From assembly GCA_963815115.1 (NCBI GenBank), contig CAWFFN010000009.1, positions 896,001 through 960,000 of the forward strand: a stretch of 64,000 bases of DNA, written 5' to 3'. Below the pieces are notes generated by a model. The model saw only the letters and a list, made by a program, of their open reading frames with translations. It was not told the DNA's origin and did no database searches. This document shows positions 5,785 through 44,548 of the stretch, one piece after another. The position numbers and the translations under genes are program-made. Within the stretch, counting starts at the first letter, position 1. Every line of letters begins with the position of its first letter. This stretch comes from an uncultured delta proteobacterium (GTDB lineage: Bacteria > Desulfobacterota > Binatia > DP-6).

Positions 5785-6504
5785 CTACGAAGGCCACGCC
5801 CGTCCCTGCGTCAGCAGGGACCACGATCGAGCCAGGACCGATCCGGCCGCGAGGGCGGAGAACCCGAGCGTCTTCACGCCGGCCGGGAGCAGGACGATGG
5901 GCACCTGGACCTCGGCGAGCAGCGAGCGGGGCGAGAGGCGATGATCGCACCGATCACCGCCGGTCGCGATCCGCGGGATCCATCGCGGCACGTCGTGACA
6001 GTACGTACGGTATGCCCGTCCGTGCCATGCCCTCAGCCTCGTCTCTTCGTGACGGACCACGGCGGAGTAGAAAGCCGCGCACCAGAGCACCGCCAACGGC
6101 ACGGCCCACCAGTATCCGAACGCCGTCACGGCGCCCGTGACCACGAAGGTGTTCGCGCAGTAGATCGGGTTCCGGAGGCGGCGATAGGGGCCGCAGGTCG
6201 TCAGCGACATGCGAACCGGGAGCCGGTAGCCGAGGTGGATCTGGGACCAGATGCGCCCGATCCAGCCGAGCCCGACGAGAGGGACGGCGACGAGCCATGC
6301 GGCGGCCGTCGGGGACGCCACGCGGGGAAGCAGCAACGTCGCGAGCGCCAGTGGCATCACGAACACGAGCGCGCGACCATCATAGGCCAGGCGACAGATC
6401 GCTCGCCCGAGGGAACTCGGTCCTCGCTGGGGAAGGGCGGGTCGGCTAGTCGCGATCGACGATGCGTCGTGGAGCTTGGGGGGCGGCGACGTGGGGGCGG
6501 TCAT
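5785..6504 (-). CDS. isoprenylcysteine carboxylmethyltransferase / phospholipid methyltransferase family membrane protein
   Basis: [21 protein letters not shown]...G.AY..YC..VPRWIP. Confidence 0.8.
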
Positions 6505-35758: not shown

Positions 35759-35864
35759 GGTGCAGCCTCCGATCCGGCTCTAACCCGGGGCCGGCAGGCA
35801 CGCAAGGACCTACGCGCTGCGCGCCCGCTTGCAAACGTCCGGCCGCCTCGCCAAAACGTGCGCG

Positions 35865-36149
35865 GTGAGCCGTCGCGACGAGACGCTGTGCGAGGAGCTG
35901 AAGGAGCTCGCGACGCGGCTCGGGCTGCGCGTTCGCGAAGAGATCCTGCTGCGTGAGGTCGGGTACCGCGTACGCAGTGGCCTGTGCCGCGTGCGCGGCG
36001 AGGACGTGCTCTTCCTCGATCGCAACCTCTCTCCGGGCGAGCGTCTCGAGGTCTTGCTGGGAGCGCTCGGCGGGATGGACATCGATGCGCACTACGTGTC
36101 GCCCGCGCTCCGCCACGTGCTGGAACGGCGCGGCAGCACCGCCGCCTAG
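35865..36149 (+). CDS. conserved hypothetical small protein
   Basis: ELATRLGLRVREE...SGLCRVRG...LDRNL...YVSPALR; 9 nt upstream of fur. Confidence 0.65.
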   Translation: MSRRDETLCEELKELATRLGLRVREEILLREVGYRVRSGLCRVRGEDVLFLDRNLSPGERLEVLLGALGGMDIDAHYVSPALRHVLERRGSTAA

Positions 36150-36158
36150 GATCGGGCC

Positions 36159-36638
36159 ATGGTTCGCGCCCGCATGCGGCTCTTCGAGCAGGCGTTGCGC
36201 GAGCGGGGTCTCAAGTCGACCGCGCAGCGCGACGACATCGCGCGCGCGTTCTTCGGCGCCGCCGAGCACCTCTCGGTCGAGGAGCTGCACGCGGCGGTGA
36301 AGAAGGTGAACCCGCGCGTCGGCTACGCGACCGTCTACCGGACGCTGAAGCTGCTGAAGGAGTGCGGGCTCGCCGACGAGCGCCATTTCGACGACGGGCA
36401 GGCCCGCTACGAGCCCACCGAGGCTGCGGAGCAGCACCACGACCACATCATCTGCGAGCGCTGCGGCAAGATCGTCGAGTTCAACAGCGACGAGCTGGAG
36501 AAGCTCCAGGAGCGCATCGCGCGCTTCCTCGGTTTCGTCGTGAGCCGCCATCGCATGGAGCTCTACGGCATCTGCGCGGAATGCCGCGAGGGCCGGCGAA
36601 GCGCCGGTCGGGCGCCGCGCGGCGTGCAGCAAGTCTAG
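36159..36638 (+). CDS. fur: ferric uptake regulator family protein
   Basis: GLKSTAQR, HLSVEEL, ATVYRTL, HHDHIICERCG, GICAEC. Confidence 0.9.
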   Translation: MVRARMRLFEQALRERGLKSTAQRDDIARAFFGAAEHLSVEELHAAVKKVNPRVGYATVYRTLKLLKECGLADERHFDDGQARYEPTEAAEQHHDHIICERCGKIVEFNSDELEKLQERIARFLGFVVSRHRMELYGICAECREGRRSAGRAPRGVQQV

Positions 36639-36729: not shown

Positions 36730-36775
36730 TTGACAGGGAAGGGCAACCCGAAGTAATTGAAAGTGACTTTCAAAA
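36730..36775 (+). promoter_or_regulatory. sigma70 promoter overlapped by a Fur-box-like palindrome
   Basis: TTGACA at 36730-36735 and TAATTG near 36754; perfect 8-1-8 palindrome TTGAAAGT-G-ACTTTCAA at 36757-36773. Confidence 0.8.
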
Positions 36776-36789
36776 TCGAGCATCTCCGA

Positions 36790-38943
36790 ATGCCCGCACC
36801 CTCCCTGCTCCGCCGCCTCCTGCCGCTCGTCCTGACGCTCGGGTGCGTGGTCGCGCCGGTGTCCTCGCGCGCGGCGGGCGAGGACGCGACCGCCGACACG
36901 CGACGGCTTCTCACGCTGCTCGCGGGGATACGCGGCGAGTACCATGAGGCCTTCGACGCCCGGGGCAACGTCAGCCGCTCCATCGAGATCGAGGAAGCGA
37001 AGCTGCTGCTGGCCGAGGCGCGCGATCTGAACGCCCGCCTCACCCTGGTCGATCCCGCCGCGCTCGACGCCGTCGCCCGGGACATCGAGCAGCACGCTCC
37101 CGCGAGCGCGCTCGGGCCGCGGATCGAGGCGATCGCGACGGGCATCACGGCGCGCACCGGGATCCGCGACGACCCCCTCGCGCCGGAGCCGCCCTCCGCG
37201 GTGCGGGGACAGGTGGTCTTCAGCGAGAACTGCGCCGGCTGCCACGGGGCAACCGGTGACGGCGGAGGCACCGAAGCGCGCCGCCTGGGGTTGGCGCCCG
37301 CCAACTTCGCGAACCCCGCCTTCATGCGCGGCGAGACTCCGCGCGACCACTTCAACGTGGTCTCGCTCGGTCGCCGTCGCTCGGGCATGCCCGAATGGGC
37401 GGACGCTCTCAGCGTGCAACAGCGCTGGGACGCGGTCAGCTACCTCTGGACCCTGGCGCATCCCCGACCGGCGCTGCTCGAGGGCCAGCAGCTCTACCAG
37501 GAGAACTGCGCGGGCTGTCACGGTGCCGACGGGGCGGGACACGGCCCGCGGGCCGCCGCGCTGTCGGGCCGGATGCCCGACTTCCACCGGCCGGGAAGCC
37601 TGATCGATCGGACGGACACCCAGCTGCTGGGCGTCGTGAGCGACGGGGTCCCCGGCACCGCCATGGCCGCCTTCGGGGGAGCGCTGAGCGAGGACCAGCG
37701 CTGGAAGACCGTCGCCTGGGTGCGTGCCCTGTCGCTCGGCGGCGCGGAGCCGCCGGCGGCGGCGCCGGAGCGCGCGGAGAGGGCTACGGAGCCAGCGCAG
37801 CTCGCGGCCCGCACGAGCGCGGCGGTGGGAGAAGCCCACCGGCTGCTCGACGAGGCGATCGCAGCCCGCCGCCGCGGAGAGGCGGCGGCGGGAGCGATCG
37901 CCACCGACGCCTACATGCGCTTCGAGCCCTTCGAGAAGCGTCTCGGTGCGGTCGATCCGGGAGCGGTCGTCCGGGTCGAGGAGGGGTTCGTGCGCGTGCG
38001 TGGCGCGCTGCACGAGCCGGGCACCAGCGTGTCGCCCGCGCTGGAATCCGAGGTGGCCCAGCTGCACCGTCACCTCGATGCGGCGGTGGCCGTCCTCGGC
38101 GCGAGCGGAGGCGACTGGGCCCGCTTCGTCCAGTCCGCCGGCATCATCCTGCGCGAGGGCTTCGAGATCGTGCTGATCGTGGGCGCGCTGCTCGCGTACG
38201 TGCGCCGGAGCGGGCAGGTGTCGCTGGTCCGGCCGATTCACGCTGGCGTCGTCCTCGGCGTGCTCGCGAGCGTGGGCACCGCGGCGCTCCTCAGCACGGT
38301 GCTGCGGCTCTACCCGGGTGCGAGCGACGTGCTGGAGGGAGCGGCGATGCTGCTCGCCGCCGGCGTGCTCTTCTGGGTGAGCTACTGGCTCGTCGCGAAG
38401 GCCGGGGCCGACCGCTGGCAGCGCTTCATCCAGGGCAAGGTGAAGGACGCGATGGCCATGGGCAGCAGCACGGCGCTCGCCGTCGCCGCCTTCCTCGCGG
38501 TCTATCGCGAAGGCTTCGAGACCGTCCTCTTCTACCGCGCGCTGCTCGGTGGGGCGCCGACCGGCGACGTGATGATCGGTGCGGGATTCCTGTGCGGGCT
38601 CGTGGTGCTGGCCGCGCTGTGGGTCGGTCTGTCGCGGCTCGGGCTCCGCGTGCCGCTCGGACCGTTCTTCCTGGTGACGGGCGCGTTCCTCTACGCGATG
38701 GCGATCGTCTTCGCCGGCCGCGGCGTCTTCGAGCTGCAGGACGCGGGCGTCATCGGGGTCACGCCGGTGCCGTTCGTGCCGCGGATCCCGGTGCTCGGGC
38801 TCTTCCCGACGCTCGAAACCCTCGTCGCGCAGGGTGTGCTCGTCGCCGCGCTTCTCGTGGCCGGCGTGGTGACGTGGCGCCGCCGCCTCCATCCGCCCCG
38901 AGGTCTGGAGGCGCAGCTCGCGTCCGGAGGCGGCCGCGCGTGA
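36790..38943 (+). CDS. di-heme cytochrome c / FTR1-family iron permease fusion (PbrT-like)
   Basis: Signal peptide, two CAGCH heme motifs with distal Met candidates (SGMP, TAMA), two REGFE motifs in the TM domain. Confidence 0.9.
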   Translation: MPAPSLLRRLLPLVLTLGCVVAPVSSRAAGEDATADTRRLLTLLAGIRGEYHEAFDARGNVSRSIEIEEAKLLLAEARDLNARLTLVDPAALDAVARDIEQHAPASALGPRIEAIATGITARTGIRDDPLAPEPPSAVRGQVVFSENCAGCHGATGDGGGTEARRLGLAPANFANPAFMRGETPRDHFNVVSLGRRRSGMPEWADALSVQQRWDAVSYLWTLAHPRPALLEGQQLYQENCAGCHGADGAGHGPRAAALSGRMPDFHRPGSLIDRTDTQLLGVVSDGVPGTAMAAFGGALSEDQRWKTVAWVRALSLGGAEPPAAAPERAERATEPAQLAARTSAAVGEAHRLLDEAIAARRRGEAAAGAIATDAYMRFEPFEKRLGAVDPGAVVRVEEGFVRVRGALHEPGTSVSPALESEVAQLHRHLDAAVAVLGASGGDWARFVQSAGIILREGFEIVLIVGALLAYVRRSGQVSLVRPIHAGVVLGVLASVGTAALLSTVLRLYPGASDVLEGAAMLLAAGVLFWVSYWLVAKAGADRWQRFIQGKVKDAMAMGSSTALAVAAFLAVYREGFETVLFYRALLGGAPTGDVMIGAGFLCGLVVLAALWVGLSRLGLRVPLGPFFLVTGAFLYAMAIVFAGRGVFELQDAGVIGVTPVPFVPRIPVLGLFPTLETLVAQGVLVAALLVAGVVTWRRRLHPPRGLEAQLASGGGRA

Positions 38944-39497
38944 CGATCGCCATCCTGATGGCGATCGCCGTGCTCATGGCTTCACCGGGCCGGGCGCAGG
39001 AGGGCGTCTTCCTGAGCGAGGACCAGGCGCCGGCGGCGGTCTTTCCGGACGCCGACCACTTTGCGCGCTCCGAGGTCGAATCCACCCCGGCGCTCCGCGA
39101 GCGCATGAGCGCCCGGCTCGACGGCGTCCATCCTTCGTTGTGGGAGGAGCGCTACGTCGTCTTCACGGCGACGCGCGGTGCGACCCCGCTCGGCCAGGCC
39201 CTGGTCGTCGAGGAGATCGGCAAGCATCGGCCGATCACCTTCGTCGTCGGGCTCCGACCGGATCGCAGCGTCAACGACGTCGCCGTGATGGACTACCGGG
39301 AAGCCTACGGCGGCGAGGTCCGCAGCACGCGCTTCCTGCGCCAGTACCGCGGCAAGGGACCGGGCGACGCCCTGCGGCCCGGTGACGAGATCACCAGCAT
39401 CGCCGGTGCCACGCTGTCCGTGGAGGCGGCGAGCCGCGCCGTTCGCAAGGCCCAGGCCCTGTCGGCCGCGCTCGACCAGCCCGGAGGGCAGCGGTGA
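38940..39497 (+). CDS. extracytoplasmic FMN-binding (flavinylated) protein
   Basis: Signal peptide, IGKHRPITF, YREAYGGEV...FL.QY, IAGATLS flavinylation-type motif. Confidence 0.8.
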   Translation: MTIAILMAIAVLMASPGRAQEGVFLSEDQAPAAVFPDADHFARSEVESTPALRERMSARLDGVHPSLWEERYVVFTATRGATPLGQALVVEEIGKHRPITFVVGLRPDRSVNDVAVMDYREAYGGEVRSTRFLRQYRGKGPGDALRPGDEITSIAGATLSVEAASRAVRKAQALSAALDQPGGQR

Positions 39498-40495
39498 GCG
39501 CTCGGCTGCTGGCCGGGATGCTCGCCCTGCTGCCGCTGGCCGCGGCGGCTGCGCCGCAGACCCAGGTGCACTACGTCATGGGCACCTACCTGCGCATCAT
39601 CGCCGACGGCGACGGCGCGGCCGCGGGGATGGCGGCTTGCTTCCGGGAAGCCCGGCGACTCGAGCACGTCTTCTCGCGCTTCGACGCGACGAGCGAGCTG
39701 TCACGGCTGAACGCCGAGGCGGCCGAGGAGACGTGGCCCGCGAGCGACGACATGTCCCGCCTGCTCGATCGGTCGCGCGCGCTGGCCGACGCCACCGGCG
39801 GGGTGTTCGACGTCGCCGTCGGGCCGCTCACCGCGCTCTGGCGTCGCCCCGAGCCGCCCAGCCGGGCCGAGCTCGCGGCGGCGCGGGCGGCGACGGGCCG
39901 CGGCGCGTTTCGCGTGCGCGGCGGCCGCGTGACCCTGGCACCCGGAGCGCGGCTCGACCTCGACGGCGTCGCCAAGGGGTATGCCGTCGACGTGTGCGCC
40001 GGCCGCCTGCGCGCCGCCGGCGTGTCGCGCGCGCTGGTGAGCCTCGGCGAGAGCAGCCTCTACGCCCTCGGCACGCCTCCGGGTGCTGCCTACTGGCGGC
40101 TCGCGGTCCGCGGCCCGGATCCGGAGACCCAGGTCGGGTGGCTCGGGCTGCGTGACGTCGGCGCCTCCGTCTCCGCGACCTACGGGAGCACTGGACGACG
40201 CGCCGGAACGGTGGCGCACATCATCGACCCGCGCAGCGGGCGTCCGCTCGAGGACGACGCGGTGGCGGTCGTCGCCGCGTCCTCGGCCACCGACGCCGAG
40301 GGCTGGACCAAGGCGCTCCTCGTGTGGGGCCGGGGCGGAGTCGAGCGCGTTCGCCGGGGCGGCGCGAGGGCGGCGGTGCACGTGACCTCCGAAGCGGTCC
40401 GCGCCGACGTCGCGGGCGATGCCGGAGGCTCGGTCACGTGGGCGCGCTTGCCGGCGCCGCGGCGCATCGCCGCGCGCGAGGAGCCGCTCCGGTGA
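39494..40495 (+). CDS. apbE: FAD:protein FMN transferase (ApbE family)
   Basis: MGT, FS.F...SELSRLN, T.G.FD..VG.L..LW, DLDGVAKGYAVD, HIIDPRSG. Confidence 0.85.
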   Translation: MSARLLAGMLALLPLAAAAAPQTQVHYVMGTYLRIIADGDGAAAGMAACFREARRLEHVFSRFDATSELSRLNAEAAEETWPASDDMSRLLDRSRALADATGGVFDVAVGPLTALWRRPEPPSRAELAAARAATGRGAFRVRGGRVTLAPGARLDLDGVAKGYAVDVCAGRLRAAGVSRALVSLGESSLYALGTPPGAAYWRLAVRGPDPETQVGWLGLRDVGASVSATYGSTGRRAGTVAHIIDPRSGRPLEDDAVAVVAASSATDAEGWTKALLVWGRGGVERVRRGGARAAVHVTSEAVRADVAGDAGGSVTWARLPAPRRIAAREEPLR

Positions 40496-41004
40496 GGGTG
40501 TTCGGCTCTCCGGGCTTCCTCCTGAGCGACGCGCGCCTCGAGGTGCGGCTGGTCTACACCGGCTTCCTGGTGCTGGCGCTCGTCGGCATGGCGACCATGG
40601 CGCTCTTCCAGGTGAAGGCCATCGGCCCGGGGCCGGCGCAGATCGCCGCCTACTTCCGGGGCGGCGAGCGCAACGGCGCGATGACCTTCCAGAAGACGTT
40701 CCGCGAGCTGATCGAGCTGACGCACTTTCACGCCTTCGTGATGGGCCTGGTCTACCTGGTGATGGCGCACCTCGTGCTCGCGACCAGCGCCTCCGATACC
40801 GTCAAGCGCTTTGCCATCGTCCTCGCGTTCGCCGGCCTCGCCGGCGACGTGCTGGGCGTCTGGCTGATCCGCTACGTCTCGGGCGCGTTCGCGTATACGC
40901 AGGTGCTGAGCTGGATCGCCGAGTGGCTCGGCTTTTCGGCGTTCGTCTACTACCCGCTGAGAGAGATGTGGTTCCGTGAAGGACGCGGGGCGCGAACAAG
41001 CTGA
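40492..41004 (+). CDS. four-TM membrane protein with clustered histidines
   Basis: GTGA overlap with apbE; hydrophobic segments; ELTHFHAF...MAHL. Confidence 0.7.
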   Translation: MRVFGSPGFLLSDARLEVRLVYTGFLVLALVGMATMALFQVKAIGPGPAQIAAYFRGGERNGAMTFQKTFRELIELTHFHAFVMGLVYLVMAHLVLATSASDTVKRFAIVLAFAGLAGDVLGVWLIRYVSGAFAYTQVLSWIAEWLGFSAFVYYPLREMWFREGRGARTS

Positions 41005-41149
41005 GCACGATCTGCGCTGCCAGTGCGGGAGCCTGATGGCTCGCGTCACCGAAGCGGGCATCGAGCTCAAGTGCCGGCGCTGCAAGCGCGTCGTCGTGGT
41101 ACCGGTCAGGGGGATGACCGGCGACTGGATCGAGGTGTCGATGCGCTGA
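40976..41149 (+). CDS. Com-like zinc-ribbon small protein (57 aa)
   Basis: Translated by hand: MKDAGREQAEHDLRCQCGSLMARVTEAGIELKCRRCKRVVVVPVRGMTGDWIEVSMR, with CxC-G.L.A...IE.KCxxC; below the ORF-track cutoff. Confidence 0.75.
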   Translation: MKDAGREQAEHDLRCQCGSLMARVTEAGIELKCRRCKRVVVVPVRGMTGDWIEVSMR

Positions 41150-41192
41150 ACCGGCGCGACATCCGAGCCAGCGGCCAGCGGTCGACGAACCC

Positions 41193-41243
41193 AGAGCCCG
41201 GAGCGCGCGCACGGCGGAGCGCGCGTCCGGGCTCTTTCCGTTT
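41193..41243 (+). terminator. intra-operon terminator/attenuator-like hairpin
   Basis: AGAGCCCGGA(G)CGCGCGC-8 nt loop-GCGCGCG-TCCGGGCTCT followed by TTCCGTTT. Confidence 0.6.
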
Positions 41244-41258
41244 GGACAAGGGGGATCG

Positions 41259-42914
41259 ATGGACAGAGGACGGTTGTGCGTCGCACTCGCGATGGCGGCG
41301 CTGGTGGTCGGGAACGGTACGGCGGTGGCCGAGAGCCTCGAGCAGCGCGTCGAGCGCATGGAGAAGGAGCTGCAGGAGCTCAAGTCGGAGCTCCGGCGGC
41401 GCGATGCGGCCGATCGCCGGCGGGCGGCCGAGGAGTCGAAGCGCAGGCCCGCCGAGACGGTGGCGGCACCGCCGCCGCCGCCGTCGAAGCCGGGCGCCGT
41501 CGCGGCCGCCCCCGCGCCCGAGCCCGGCACCGAGGCGGCGCGCACGGCCAAGGCGGGCGAGAGCGAGAAGGGCGGCTACCTGCCGAGCTCGCTCCGCGCC
41601 ATCACCGACCGGGTGAAGGTCGGCGGCTACGGCTCGATCCGCTTCGAGGCCAACAGCAACCCGGCCGACAACAACACCTTCACCTACCGCCGCTTCGTGC
41701 TGACCACCGATGCCAACATCGCCCCCCGGCTGCACGCGTACATGGAGCTCGAGCTGGAGCGCTTCCGCGAATTGGAAATCGAGAAGACCCTGCAGCCGAG
41801 CGATGGCGGCCTCGCCGCGACCCAGGCCGTCGAAGCCACCAACGGCTCGGAGATCTCGCTCGAGCAGGCGTGGCTGCAGTACGACGTCCAGGACTGGCTC
41901 AAGTTCCGGGGCGGCGCGGTGCTGGTCCCGGTCGGCCGCTTCAACCTGCACCACGACGACGACCTCTGGGATCTGCCGCGCCGCTCGCTGGTGGATCGCG
42001 GGGTGCCCGTGCTGCCCGTTCCCGCCGCCTGGGACGAGCTGGGCATGGGCTTCCTCGGCGACGTGCCGCTCGGCGACGACATGACGCTCAACTACCAGAC
42101 CTACGTCGTCAACGGCGTGACCCTCGACTACGAGTTCGAGCAGATCGCCCAGACCCGCTTCCCGGACACGCCGCTGCAGGCGATCGAAGTCGAGGTGCAG
42201 CCGTTCACCGGCACCTTCTCGAACGACGTCAAGAACGCGAAGTCCTTCACCGGGCGACTCGCGCTGAGCCCCGCGCTGGGCCACGAGGTGGGCGCCTCCT
42301 GGTACTACGGCCGCTACACGCCGAGCTTCCTGCCCAGCGAGAGCCTGTATTCTCTCGCCGGCGACTGGAAGAGCATCTTCGGGCACTTCGAGGTCGAGGG
42401 CGAGTACGTCTTCACGCACTTCGGCGGCGTCAAGAACGTCGCCACCGGTCTGGCGCGGGTCGCGCGCGAGCAGGAGTCGGAGTTCGAGAACCCGACGCTC
42501 GAGAGCGAGGTCGAGTTCGAGCTCGCCAACATCGCGACGAGCAAGCAGGGATACTGGCTCGACTTCCGCTATCGCTTCTGGCCCGACTTCCTCACCAAGA
42601 GCTTCCTCGGCTGGGAGTTCGAGAACCCGCAGCTCGTCGCCGTGCTGCGCGGCGAGCAGGTGTGGCTGAACGGCTTGGTGGAGGAAGCGGCGTTCGGCGG
42701 GGGCCGGCTCGTCTCGTTCGAGACCGACGACCGGCGGGTCGACCGCATCACCGTCGGCCTGTCGTATCGTCCGGTGCCGCTCGTCGTCTTCCAGCTCGCC
42801 TACGAGTACACGCTCACCAACAGCGGCAAGAGTCTGTCCAGCGTCACGAACTTCATCCCGGGCAACGTCGATCATCAGAGCGCATTCCTGTTCGGCGCCG
42901 CCTTCGGATTCTGA
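41259..42914 (+). CDS. outer-membrane porin with N-terminal coiled coil
   Basis: Signal peptide, LEQRVERMEKELQELK coiled coil, GGYG, RFVL, ELELE, LEQAWL, VPVGRFNL.H, C-terminal Phe (AAFGF). Confidence 0.8.
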   Translation: MDRGRLCVALAMAALVVGNGTAVAESLEQRVERMEKELQELKSELRRRDAADRRRAAEESKRRPAETVAAPPPPPSKPGAVAAAPAPEPGTEAARTAKAGESEKGGYLPSSLRAITDRVKVGGYGSIRFEANSNPADNNTFTYRRFVLTTDANIAPRLHAYMELELERFRELEIEKTLQPSDGGLAATQAVEATNGSEISLEQAWLQYDVQDWLKFRGGAVLVPVGRFNLHHDDDLWDLPRRSLVDRGVPVLPVPAAWDELGMGFLGDVPLGDDMTLNYQTYVVNGVTLDYEFEQIAQTRFPDTPLQAIEVEVQPFTGTFSNDVKNAKSFTGRLALSPALGHEVGASWYYGRYTPSFLPSESLYSLAGDWKSIFGHFEVEGEYVFTHFGGVKNVATGLARVAREQESEFENPTLESEVEFELANIATSKQGYWLDFRYRFWPDFLTKSFLGWEFENPQLVAVLRGEQVWLNGLVEEAAFGGGRLVSFETDDRRVDRITVGLSYRPVPLVVFQLAYEYTLTNSGKSLSSVTNFIPGNVDHQSAFLFGAAFGF

Positions 42915-42925
42915 GGAGATGTGAA

Positions 42926-44548
42926 ATGTCGACGATCAAGCTCCTGCTCCTGCTGCTCGTGCTCCTCGGCCCCGCCGTCGCGCGGGCCGACGACGACGAG
43001 GGCGGCGGAGAGGAGGCCGATCCCCCCGAGGTGGTGATCGGCGAGCGGCTCTTCCTGGAGACACGCTTCGCCCAGTTCTTCCAGGCCCACGCCGGCGGCA
43101 ACATGAACGCGGTGCTCGCGCAGGGCGATCCGGTGATGAACACGCTCGATACGACGGCGGGGCCGATCGCCGCTCCGTTCCCGGGCGCCGGCATGAACTG
43201 CCGGCAGTGTCACCTGGTCGACGACGCCAAGGAGACGCCCGGGGGCGGCAATCGCAGCTATGCCGACTTCGCGCGCCACAGCCCCATCCCGGCACGCGAG
43301 GACGGCCGCACGATGACGCCGCGCAACTCCCCGCCGCTGGTCAACGCCAGCCTCGCGCGCGGGCGACCGTTCTTCCTGCACTTCGACGGCGAGTTCCCCT
43401 CCACCGCCGCCCTCGTCGAGGGCACCCTCACCGGACGCAACTTCGGCTGGCTGCCGAACGAGCGCGGGCAGGCCGTGGCGCACATCGCCGCCGTGATCCG
43501 GGGCGACGACGGCACGGGTCAGCTGGCGGCCGACAACGGCGGCGCGTACCGCCGCGTGCTCGGTGGCAGCGACCCGTCCATCCCGAAGGAGCTCCGGCTG
43601 CCGAAGCGGTTTCGCATCGACGTCGATCGCGCGAGCGACGATCAGATCCTGCGCGCGGTGGCGCGCCTGATCTCCGCCTACGTCGAGTCGCTCGAGTTCG
43701 AGAACGCGTCACCCTACGACCGCTTCCTCGAGAAGAACGGCCTGCCGACCGAGCCGCGCGAGTTCGAGTCGACGGCCGACTACCTGAAGCGGCTCAAATT
43801 CCTGATGGGCGAGCACGGGGACCCCGAGCCGATCACCGATGCGGACGGCGCCTTCCAGCTGCACGAGCAGCAGTTCGTCTTCGGCGCGGACGAGCTCGAG
43901 GGCCTGCGCATCTTCCTGGACCGCGGGCGTGGCAACTGCGTCTCCTGCCATCCGCCGCCGGACTTCACCGACTTCAGCTTCCACAACACGGGCGTGGCGC
44001 AGGAGGAGTACGACGCGCTGCACGGCGCAGGCAGCTTCGCGGCCCTCGCCATTCCCGACCCGGCGATCCGCAAGGCCGATCCCGATGCCTTCCTGCCGGC
44101 GACGGCCCTTCATCCCGCCGCGCTGGAGCCCTTCCGGGCGATCCCGGCGGCGGATGCGCCGGGACGCACCGACCTGGGCATGTGGAATCTGCTGGAGAAC
44201 CCGGACTATTCCGGCCGCACGTACCAGCGTCACCTCGAGCGCATGGTGTGCGCGTCGCAGGGGTCGCCGGCGAGCTGCCGCCGGGCGCCGGACGCGCTCC
44301 TCGCCGCCTCGATCGCCCTCTTCAAGACGCCCGGGCTACGCGACCTCGGGCACTCCGGACCGTATCTGCACAACGGCTCGAAGGACGCCCTCGAGGACGT
44401 CGTGCGGTTCTACGCCAACGCGTCGGCCCTGGCTCGGGCAGGCCAGCTGCGCAACGGCGCGCGTGAGCTGCGGGACATGCACATCGGCGACGGTGACGTC
44501 GTCCCCCTGGCGGCGTTCCTGCGGGCCCTCAACGAGGACTACGAGTAG
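42926..44548 (+). CDS. di-heme cytochrome c peroxidase/MauG superfamily protein
   Basis: Signal peptide, GERLF.E, CRQCH, RNSP, GL.IF...GNCVSCH, FKTPGLRDL..SGPYLHNG. Confidence 0.85.
   Translation: MSTIKLLLLLLVLLGPAVARADDDEGGGEEADPPEVVIGERLFLETRFAQFFQAHAGGNMNAVLAQGDPVMNTLDTTAGPIAAPFPGAGMNCRQCHLVDDAKETPGGGNRSYADFARHSPIPAREDGRTMTPRNSPPLVNASLARGRPFFLHFDGEFPSTAALVEGTLTGRNFGWLPNERGQAVAHIAAVIRGDDGTGQLAADNGGAYRRVLGGSDPSIPKELRLPKRFRIDVDRASDDQILRAVARLISAYVESLEFENASPYDRFLEKNGLPTEPREFESTADYLKRLKFLMGEHGDPEPITDADGAFQLHEQQFVFGADELEGLRIFLDRGRGNCVSCHPPPDFTDFSFHNTGVAQEEYDALHGAGSFAALAIPDPAIRKADPDAFLPATALHPAALEPFRAIPAADAPGRTDLGMWNLLENPDYSGRTYQRHLERMVCASQGSPASCRRAPDALLAASIALFKTPGLRDLGHSGPYLHNGSKDALEDVVRFYANASALARAGQLRNGARELRDMHIGDGDVVPLAAFLRALNEDYE

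Follow-up and report, generated by a model that had tools for sequence, protein, structure and literature searches.

A Com-like zinc-ribbon protein and a conserved leader hairpin as a candidate protein–RNA switch for iron-uptake genes

The subject of this study is a gene of 57 codons and the leader directly 3′ of it in a 64-kb stretch of DNA (hereafter the window; 72% GC; positions 896,001 to 960,000 of contig CAWFFN010000009.1) from an uncultured delta proteobacterium of the Binatia. The gene encodes a four-Cys zinc-ribbon protein and stands in an iron-uptake cluster, before the gene for a porin-like outer-membrane protein. We found that the protein is conserved and homologous to Com of phage Mu, and that the leader contains a small hairpin which is conserved and covaries, overlaps a terminator-like stem, keeps its position in leaders and co-occurs with the gene. 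As judged from sequence comparison, the pairing of motif and gene across phyla looks like an undescribed protein–RNA switch for iron-uptake genes. That the protein binds the RNA, and that it does so as an activator, is what we infer from the anatomy of the leaders and the published specificity of Com.

The zinc-ribbon protein and its relation to Com

The sequence-only reading from which this analysis started had described an unannotated open reading frame (ORF) of 57 codons, a 109-nt leader, repeated GCCAGCG and GAGCC motifs and a 17-bp stem, and every one of these was found where it had been placed (Table 1). The first 29 nt of the ORF lie, in a different frame, within the 3′ end of the preceding membrane-protein gene, whose stop is at 41004. 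In the frame of the ORF, the GC fraction in a 180-nt bin from 41040 was 0.83 at third, 0.67 at first and 0.63 at second codon positions. The product is identical to P0006 in the protein collection searched, the only difference being a Met for the GTG-encoded first residue, and the presence of this record means that at least one gene caller has found the gene. All 75 candidates from a word-indexed search were homologous at E ≤ 5e-3, one of them being the product of the window itself. A profile search collected 1179 representative clusters (50% identity) at E ≤ 1e-3, and 597 at 1e-10. With this coding signal and these homologues, the proposed ORF proved to be genuine and conserved.

The primary structure of the family was then compared. 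Among 30 aligned homologues, 19 columns were invariant (R C x C G x L x A R ... G x E L K C R R C K R x V ... W), and Cys15, Cys17, Cys33 and Cys36 were present in all 30; the conserved core reads RCxCGSLMAR...ELKCRRCKR. A scan of one genome per species revealed 263 encoding loci, and all locus counts given below refer to the best 80. The CxC...CRRC core was found in each of these 80, which derive from Candidatus Binatia and metagenome-assembled genomes (MAGs) labelled 'delta proteobacterium', Myxococcota (several Sorangium chromosomes, Nannocystaceae and Haliangium), Nitrospirota (including Manganitrophus), Rokubacteria, Acidobacteriota and Planctomycetota. The window protein has neither a signal peptide nor a membrane segment. 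Scans of it against Pfam and NCBIfam gave nothing above cut-off, only sub-threshold matches to DUF6510 (E 0.015) and YedD, and a search of the PDB by sequence profile returned chance-level zinc-ribbon matches only (best E 0.037). DUF6510 was also weakly matched by 17 of the 30 homologues (best E 0.0051, sub-threshold; residues 18–55 of P0001), a likeness that may mark a further related ribbon family. Proteins with two Com-like ribbons in tandem exist (P0102, P0106, P0113, P0118 and P0134; 99–127 aa), which fits one ribbon for each half of the RNA motif described below. Another protein, P0213 (510 aa, eight stretches), looks like an unrelated repeat protein.

Concerning the relation to Com, hhalign comparison with an alignment of 15 members of the Mu Com family gave a probability of 96.2% (E 2.5e-9) over 35 columns covering the zinc ribbon, and 82.4% with Mu Com alone. 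BLASTP with Mu Com gave 34% identity over 32 residues (E 5e-5 for a single comparison), with the alignment extending across the whole ribbon. The JGI product name 'phage FluMu protein Com' is attached to 11 of the 75 homologues. The family-level alignment thus upholds the earlier suggestion that the ORF is Com-like. The suggestion that it is chromosomal and not of phage origin also held, as tblastn with the protein found no match in 50,697 phage records and the neighbouring genes are those of iron uptake.

The bipartite hairpin and the terminator-like stem

The GCCAGCG and GAGCC motifs (GAGCC at 41165; GAGCCCGGAGCG at 41194) turned out to be parts of a bipartite element that is conserved among the homologues. 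In the window, this element folds into a small hairpin of −4.7 kcal/mol with two helices, P1 (41173–41175 with 41196–41198) and P2 (41180–41182 with 41189–41191), separated by a 4×4 internal loop CAGC/CAGA (general form CAGMG/CMGA). The cross-phylum motif, derived from the post-stop sequences of loci with a downstream porin, is GGCC(A/C)G(A/C)G, 8–14 nt, CC(A/C)G(A/C)GCC, and it recurs 3′ of the small genes in Binatia, Myxococcota, Nitrospirota and other phyla; at three loci a stem-loop is inserted in the spacer between the halves. With a loose regular expression, the motif was found between −30 and +400 nt of the gene stop in 49 of 79 loci. Over the 80 loci (838,842 bases), the same expression gave 93 matches on the gene strand versus 18 on the other, and 48 of the 93 lay within −30 to +200 nt of this stop. 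The bipartite pattern occurs once in the window, where 0.09 matches are expected from shuffles (8 of 100 shuffles had at least one). On the scale of the whole genome, a degenerate pattern gave 7 matches versus 12 for the reversed control; because the GC content of 72% makes such a pattern uninformative, a covariance model was used instead.

For this model, designated R1, we began with 73 instances of a tight regular expression, removed eight by eye (GC-rich, coding-like and without conserved flanks) and collapsed duplicates; the resulting 57 instances were aligned by MAFFT over 37 columns. The two P2 pairs left free by the search pattern were GC in 36, AU in 10, GU in 8 and other in 3 instances (54 of 57 paired), and UA in 35, CG in 14, UG in 6 and other in 2 (55 of 57). 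Double changes were present in 24 cells. When the partner was slid by 1–3 columns, 13–63% of cells paired, compared with 98.5% observed. The P2 covariation score was reached by none of 500 shuffles, a control which, as the aligned sequences are related, overstates the support and is not to be read as a probability. In the 80-locus set, 76 of 78 covariance-model matches (E ≤ 0.5) were on the strand of the small gene. The double changes, the G-U pairs and the strand bias indicate an RNA hairpin and not a DNA element. In Rfam 15, the region 40800–41400 gave only a chance-level match to aspS (18.1 bits versus a gathering score of 42.5; E 1.9), and nothing reached the gathering score in seven other carrier loci.

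The architecture of the element can be compared with the known target of Com. Com, a CCCC zinc finger of 62 aa, binds to a hairpin beside the translation-inhibition structure of the mom mRNA; it opens the inhibitory structure and is an activator of mom (PMC6483171, in the sections available to us). Systematic evolution of ligands by exponential enrichment (SELEX) with the Com zinc finger yielded a bipartite GAG(N)2CC, with two cores flanking a 3–4-bp stem, and the authors proposed that Com recognises CC(N)2-3GAG in which the GA is accessible (PMC6483171, Nowacka et al. 2019, same sections). The C(A/C)G(A/C)G core occurs twice in the present element, once on each side of a 3-bp stem that covaries, with CC/GG as boundaries. 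At the level of sequence comparison, this is the layout of the published SELEX motif, arrived at independently. We propose the hairpin at 41173–41198 as a putative binding site of the zinc ribbon and a candidate antiterminator element.

The hairpin does not stand alone. The arms of the 17-bp terminator-like hairpin are 41193–41202/41226–41235 (10 bp, 100% complementary) and 41204–41210/41219–41225 (7 bp), with one bulged G. Its 5′ foot (AGAGCC, 41193–41198) is the 3′ strand of the small hairpin; with this foot common to both, the two folds are mutually exclusive. In order to follow this overlap among homologues, a terminator was defined as a hairpin of ≤ −8 kcal/mol followed by at least five T in eight positions, and 64 instances had enough downstream sequence. 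A terminator was present in 28 of the 64, and in all 28 its 5′ arm started inside the last 7 nt of the motif, while the sequences of the terminator stems vary between loci. The 28 include the three closest relatives (L034–L036), in which runs of T6–T7 follow the hairpin, but not the window itself. A hairpin whose 5′ arm holds the second GAGCC, noticed before in the window alone, therefore recurs among the homologues. Several terminator-linked copies come directly after Fur-box-like promoters, a position in which an unconditional terminator would make no sense.

The folding energies of the leader in the window were calculated. The minimum-energy fold, which contains the terminator-like hairpin, had −51.1 kcal/mol, and the leader with the small hairpin enforced had −35.8 kcal/mol, a cost of about 15. 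The small hairpin, being weak relative to the terminator fold, would need a stabilising factor. The folding energy of the leader as such deviates only mildly from expectation (z = −1.97), an equally stable fold being reached by 7 of 200 shuffles. In the outer helix of the minimum-energy fold, the GGG of the Shine-Dalgarno sequence pairs with CCC at 41189–41191 and UCGAU at the start codon with GUCGA at 41181–41185, the partners of both being strands of P2 in the small hairpin. Many terminator-less leaders have a start region, GGCUCGAUG, whose complement is the second half of the motif (CGAGCC), as in the translation-inhibition structure of the Mu type. In 13 of 33 such leaders the motif pairs with three or more Shine-Dalgarno bases, an indicative count since the Shine-Dalgarno positions are a rough guess.

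Further copies, co-occurrence and gene context

The element had been regarded as local to the operon in the window, and this was not borne out: it is multi-copy and spread over a regulon. The best match of R1 in the whole genome (6.9 Mb) was the window site (41169–41202; 47.3 bits, E 3.7e-6), and a second, weaker copy was found at G000:C7:867369-867400 (L122/L133; 28.2 bits, E 0.055). This copy lies between a ChuX/HutX-like gene and an operon encoding, in addition to a secreted and a Cys-rich protein, a TonB-dependent receptor, a FecCD permease and an ABC ATPase. The equivalent place is occupied in other genera by the small gene itself. Some loci have two to three copies, situated 5′ of genes for cupredoxin, ExbB, DUF6662, porin-like proteins, multicopper oxidase and small proteins of 66–72 aa. 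Copies in Sorangium, Manganitrophus and Binatia genomes lie a few bases 3′ of Fur-box-like palindromes, and most are then followed by a terminator.

Co-occurrence was examined in 41 genomes, the window's own and 40 relatives, a set of kin for which no test statistic is given. The protein was encoded in 14 of them (E ≤ 2e-9) and 11 had a model match (E ≤ 0.1), with both present in 10. In three of the four genomes with the gene only, a motif with a spacer of at least 15 nt was seen by eye directly after the gene. The 27 genomes without the gene gave a single match (G017, E 0.0155), which we judged to be due to chance, as it lies in a coding-like stretch with no hairpin 3′ of it.

Some further observations concern the copies themselves. 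At two loci (L051 5810–5842 and L054 1273–1305), the element stands 5′ of the small gene itself, 313–366 nt before its stop, which hints at autoregulation. The 66–72-aa proteins form a family with an HxHxG... motif that is frequently encoded by the first gene after the RNA element; the two members scanned (from L063 and L074) had no Pfam match, and that of L074 stands 5′ of FeoB. At one locus of a Deltaproteobacteria MAG (L091, 5950–7500), the small gene continues in frame and without a stop into the porin gene, and a weak covariance-model match (E 0.04) lies at 6116–6148 inside the joined frame, which a fusion, a read-through or misassembly could explain.

The genes on the + strand of the window were assigned by GC content according to codon position. 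Only one site in the window matched the delta-proteobacterial Fur box (two mismatches; 0.02 matches expected), using the consensus from Table 3 of PMC545781. The classical Fur box TGATAATNATTATCA had no match at up to three mismatches. The box overlaps the TTG at 36757, the listed start of the cytochrome c–FTR1 ORF, so that the true start of this gene is probably later. The fur gene, the delta-type box and the gene content identify a Fur-linked iron-uptake cluster. The proposal of a post-transcriptional layer under Fur fits this arrangement, as well as the copies of the element just 3′ of Fur-box-like promoters elsewhere.

We also noted the following on the individual genes. The 106-aa ORF directly 5′ of fur keeps its position in relatives (7 of 80 loci and the loci of the same genus). 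The 170-aa membrane protein adjoins FMN_bind and ApbE genes in 22 of 80 loci and could serve a flavin-based ferric reductase as its membrane partner. In the porin-like protein, which we propose as the product of the gene immediately controlled by the leader, the coiled coil is N-terminal and follows the signal peptide, and no Pfam porin model was matched. The di-heme peroxidase had weak matches, far below cut-off, to TIGR03981, TIGR03791 (MauG) and TIGR04039 (MbnH family). An M1 peptidase gene on the other strand is convergent with the cluster.

ORFs around the 80 loci were clustered in order to compare gene contexts. In 30 loci, the porin family was directly 3′ of the small gene and shared its strand (median offset +129); Fur was directly 5′ in 20, a ferritin-like gene was convergent in 14 and FeoB was nearby in 6, while a TonB-dependent receptor was directly 3′ in eight Sorangium loci. 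The closest relatives retain the whole cluster in synteny, and the genus of the window keeps the order ApbE–membrane protein–small gene–porin–peroxidase. Other families of the class have Fur–small gene–porin–FMN_bind–membrane protein–ApbE, or ChuX-like–small gene–secreted protein–TonB receptor. Taking into account that the order of neighbours varies, the small gene is tied to iron acquisition and not to any one neighbour. It tends to stand just 5′ of an envelope gene.

Table 1. Features of the iron-uptake cluster and its leader. Positions are those of the window except where a locus is named.
Feature	Position	Strand	Remarks
106-aa ORF	35829-36149	+	directly 5′ of fur; no Pfam family
fur	36150-36638	+	PF01475, E 1.3e-36; in the same gene cluster
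Fur box, delta-proteobacterial type, TGAAAGTGACTTTCA	36758-36772	+	3′ of TTGACA; between fur and the cytochrome c–FTR1 gene
Cytochrome c–FTR1 fusion	36757-38943	+	frame from codon-position GC
FMN_bind protein	about 38982-39497	+	
ApbE	39494-40495	+	
170-aa membrane protein	40492-41004	+	no Pfam family; motif ELTHFHAFVMG
Com-like four-Cys zinc-ribbon gene (CxC...CxxC), 57 aa, VKDAGREQAEHDLRCQCGSLMARVTEAGIELKCRRCKRVVVVPVRGMTGDWIEVSMR	40976-41149	+	GTG start, TGA stop
Leader	41150-41258	+	109 nt, between the 57-aa ORF and the porin gene
Tandem GCCAGCG repeat	41167-41180	+	copy 2 forms motif half 1, copy 1 shares bases with the conserved 5′ flank 'AGC'; consensus CAGCGGCCAGCGGTC
Bipartite RNA hairpin GGCCAGCG-GUC...ACC-CAGAGCC (GGCCAGCG...CCCAGAGCC)	41173-41198	+	24 nt after the ORF stop
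17-bp terminator-like hairpin	41193-41235	+	inverted repeats; part of the minimum-energy fold
U-rich tail TTCCGTTTGGAC (TTCCGTTTGG; TTCCGTTT)	41236-41247	+	weaker than the T5-T7 runs of the closest relatives
Porin Shine-Dalgarno AAGGGGGA and ATG	41248-41261	+	paired in the minimum-energy fold
Porin-like outer-membrane protein gene	41259-42914	+	signal peptide, coiled coil, C-terminal F; no Pfam family
MauG/MbnH-like di-heme peroxidase	42926-44548	+	last gene of the unit; PF03150, E 8.5e-6; two CxxCH motifs
66-72-aa family members	L063 8643-8855; L059 6352-6552; L074 7413-7631; L064 10480-10698; L058 7194-7394		

Proposed mechanism, alternatives and known systems

On the basis of these comparisons, we consider it probable that the Com-type protein stabilises the small hairpin and thereby relieves termination and the masking of start sites. 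When iron is low, Fur would release the promoter, and the protein would be made only when Fur permits transcription of the operon. Without the protein, the leader would adopt the far stabler long hairpin, which by default would terminate transcription or mask the start site ahead of an envelope gene; in the window, the outer helix would also pair the ribosome-binding site and start codon, and the porin and di-heme genes would be poorly expressed. Protein from the same or another Fur-controlled transcript would capture the nascent small hairpin through its two GAG-containing halves. The AGAGCC foot would then be locked, the residual stem would no longer abut the U-tract and the ribosome-binding site would be freed, resulting in read-through and translation of the porin. 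We infer that the same protein could act in trans on copies in other iron-uptake leaders, for example that of the TonB-receptor/ABC-transporter operon in its own genome. Such a system would be a feed-forward gate that delays or sets a threshold for outer-membrane and other uptake components.

A number of points weigh against this reading. Among the structural ones, the AlphaFold2 model of the protein is a three-stranded ribbon of moderate confidence (predicted local distance difference test score 70.7), and a Foldseek search of the PDB with it gave nothing at E ≤ 0.001, the top rows being generic ribbons (TFIIB, Pol III subunits). None of the 30 homologues exceeded the gathering threshold of PF10122 (Zn_ribbon_Com), to which two gave weak matches (best E 0.019) and the window protein none at E ≤ 1. 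The first knuckle is CxC in this family and CxxC in Com. As for the RNA, the search pattern fixed P1 and the outer pair of P2, whose invariance is a product of that pattern and uninformative, and R1 was built from regular-expression instances picked beside these genes. The tail in the window has fewer than five T in eight and fails both terminator criteria, a simple scan included; with so weak a U-tract, termination in this genome may be leaky or absent. No terminator was present in 36 of the 64 instances, so that more than one mechanism may be needed to account for all leaders. The motif is missing beside the gene in eight Sorangium loci, although one Sorangium genome, that of Sorangium cellulosum So ce26, which has the gene, contains model matches elsewhere. 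Among RNA data, one soil metatranscriptome contig of 151 nt (40756–40906) and two short partial pieces were found, which leave the ORF and leader uncovered, and no run of the public reads contained half or more of the sampled words of the stretch.

We considered the possibility that the RNA element is autonomous, as a small riboswitch, a leader responding to metal or temperature, or a site for some other factor, and that the protein functions elsewhere in iron uptake, for instance as a metal-handling or assembly partner of envelope proteins. Many motif instances are not beside the gene, the gene stands among envelope and redox genes, and the link between protein and RNA is an indirect one. Nevertheless, gene and motif co-occur (10 of 14 genomes versus one doubtful match in 27), just over half of the gene-strand matches (48 of 93) lie within −30 to +200 nt of the gene stop, and the protein, devoid of a signal peptide and of membrane segments, has an RNA-binding homologue with a SELEX motif of the same layout. 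Moreover, a 26-nt hairpin of −4.7 kcal/mol is a poor ligand pocket and loses to the terminator unaided. An autonomous element is thus unlikely, and much the same can be said of a protein that represses: it would keep the GAG halves unpaired or bridge them, and so favour the terminator or masking fold. A repressor from the same operon would provide homeostatic, negative feedback on outer-membrane iron-uptake components, and TRAP and PyrR are well-known precedents of RNA-binding proteins that act in attenuation by promoting termination. On the other hand, the fold that covaries, and hence is selected, is the small hairpin, which excludes the terminator foot, and the terminator fold, already about 15 kcal/mol stabler, needs no help. 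The homologue Com, too, is an activator that opens an inhibitory structure (PMC6483171, in the sections available).

Two other explanations seem highly improbable. NCBI names Pfam Com-family proteins 'Com family DNA-binding transcriptional regulator' and the two halves of the element resemble a direct repeat, as if it were a DNA operator for a transcription factor. However, pairing is kept via G-U wobbles (14 cells), which are mismatches in DNA, the strand bias relative to the downstream gene is strong, and the element lies 3′ of Fur-box promoters and 5′ of terminators, hence inside transcripts; Com itself is documented as an RNA-binding protein. The stem could also be a plain terminator of the upstream operon, with the motif conserved through shared ancestry of a mobile iron-uptake cassette, since the hairpin comes after the last small gene of a long operon and the whole cluster is syntenic in the closest relatives. 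Here, the 23 nt from the hairpin to the porin ATG are too few to accommodate a promoter. The motif persists where the flanks change (porin, TonB receptor, ExbB, cupredoxin, multicopper oxidase) and where terminator stems vary, and there are copies directly after promoters with no gene upstream.

The earlier suggestion that the protein senses its occupancy by Zn or Fe received no support. In a speculative extension that we regard as doubtful, the ribbon would be both sensor and effector: the four Cys residues would exchange Zn for Fe or lose the metal on oxidation, and RNA binding would report iron or redox state, steering antitermination and unmasking of start sites across the regulon. If true, this would be a protein–RNA counterpart, under Fur, of the eukaryotic iron-regulatory protein/iron-responsive element system, in Binatia, Myxococcota, Nitrospirota and allied phyla.

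Compared with Mu Com, the family has much in common. Both proteins are about 60 aa long and carry their four-Cys zinc ribbon at the N terminus, both are encoded immediately 5′ of the gene controlled (in our case, the gene proposed to be controlled), and both are associated with a short hairpin with GAG/CC cores on both sides of a 3–4-bp stem, near an inhibitory structure that hides the start (PMC6483171, in the sections available). In contrast to Com, the family in question is chromosomal and found at iron-uptake loci, with no phage genes or mom among its neighbours, falls below the Pfam threshold, has several target copies per genome and carries an unrelated short tail with a conserved Trp in place of the EHPTE...CGKRE tail. 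The inhibitory structure is here often an intrinsic terminator, which would imply antitermination, a mode that we did not find described for Com in the portions of the literature available. Com has so far been a phage curiosity, one protein acting on one mRNA. If the proposed mechanism is true, the Com fold runs a chromosomal regulon in several large, little-studied phyla of soils and sediments, partly by antitermination. It would also provide a 57-aa RNA-binding module with a defined 26-nt target, reusable as a genetic part, and a name for a protein family of more than 1000 clusters and for an RNA element, both absent from Pfam and Rfam.

Protein-dependent antitermination through an antiterminator hairpin that overlaps the terminator is known from BglG/LicT and the ribonucleic antiterminator (RAT), ANTAR proteins and HutP. 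The leader in the window shares with these a weak 5′ hairpin that includes nucleotides of the terminator 5′ arm and would win only when held by protein. The differences are a single zinc ribbon of 57 aa with no CAT, PRD or ANTAR domain and no evident sensor domain, and a distinct RNA motif that is absent from Rfam. With respect to the porin, a hypothetical porin of Geobacter and Desulfuromonas, psp, has been predicted to be controlled by Fur via delta-type Fur boxes (Rodionov et al. 2004, PMC545781, available in part). The porin-like protein and delta-type box in the window are similar, the porins being likened by description only. PMC545781, in the part available, describes transcriptional control only, and the term 'zinc finger' is absent from its main text; a mechanism as proposed here would add a post-transcriptional tier to iron homeostasis where that work predicted only Fur boxes. 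In the literature searched, supplementary files excepted, neither a Com-like iron regulator nor the RNA element was found to be described. Sequence comparison supports the idea of a Com-like switch and widens it considerably, to a chromosomal Com-type protein and a new RNA element, which frequently coincides with a terminator and marks the leaders of iron-uptake genes in several phyla.

A comparable case is that of the HemP/HmuP/ChuP proteins, each a small protein from the first gene of a Fur-repressed uptake operon and a positive post-transcriptional regulator of TonB-dependent receptor genes. HmuP acts through motifs in the 5′ untranslated region of shmR. The window protein and its 30 homologues had no match to the hemP family in Pfam scans (E ≤ 10). 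ChuP is modelled as heme-binding and not as a Cys4 zinc ribbon, and no terminator-overlapping hairpin is described for it in the sections of PMC9131926 available to us. ChuP, a protein of unrelated family, is the nearest functional analogue that we found among the systems so described: it is small, is controlled by Fur and activates TonB-receptor genes at the post-transcriptional level, those of a second operon in trans among them (PMC9131926, same sections).

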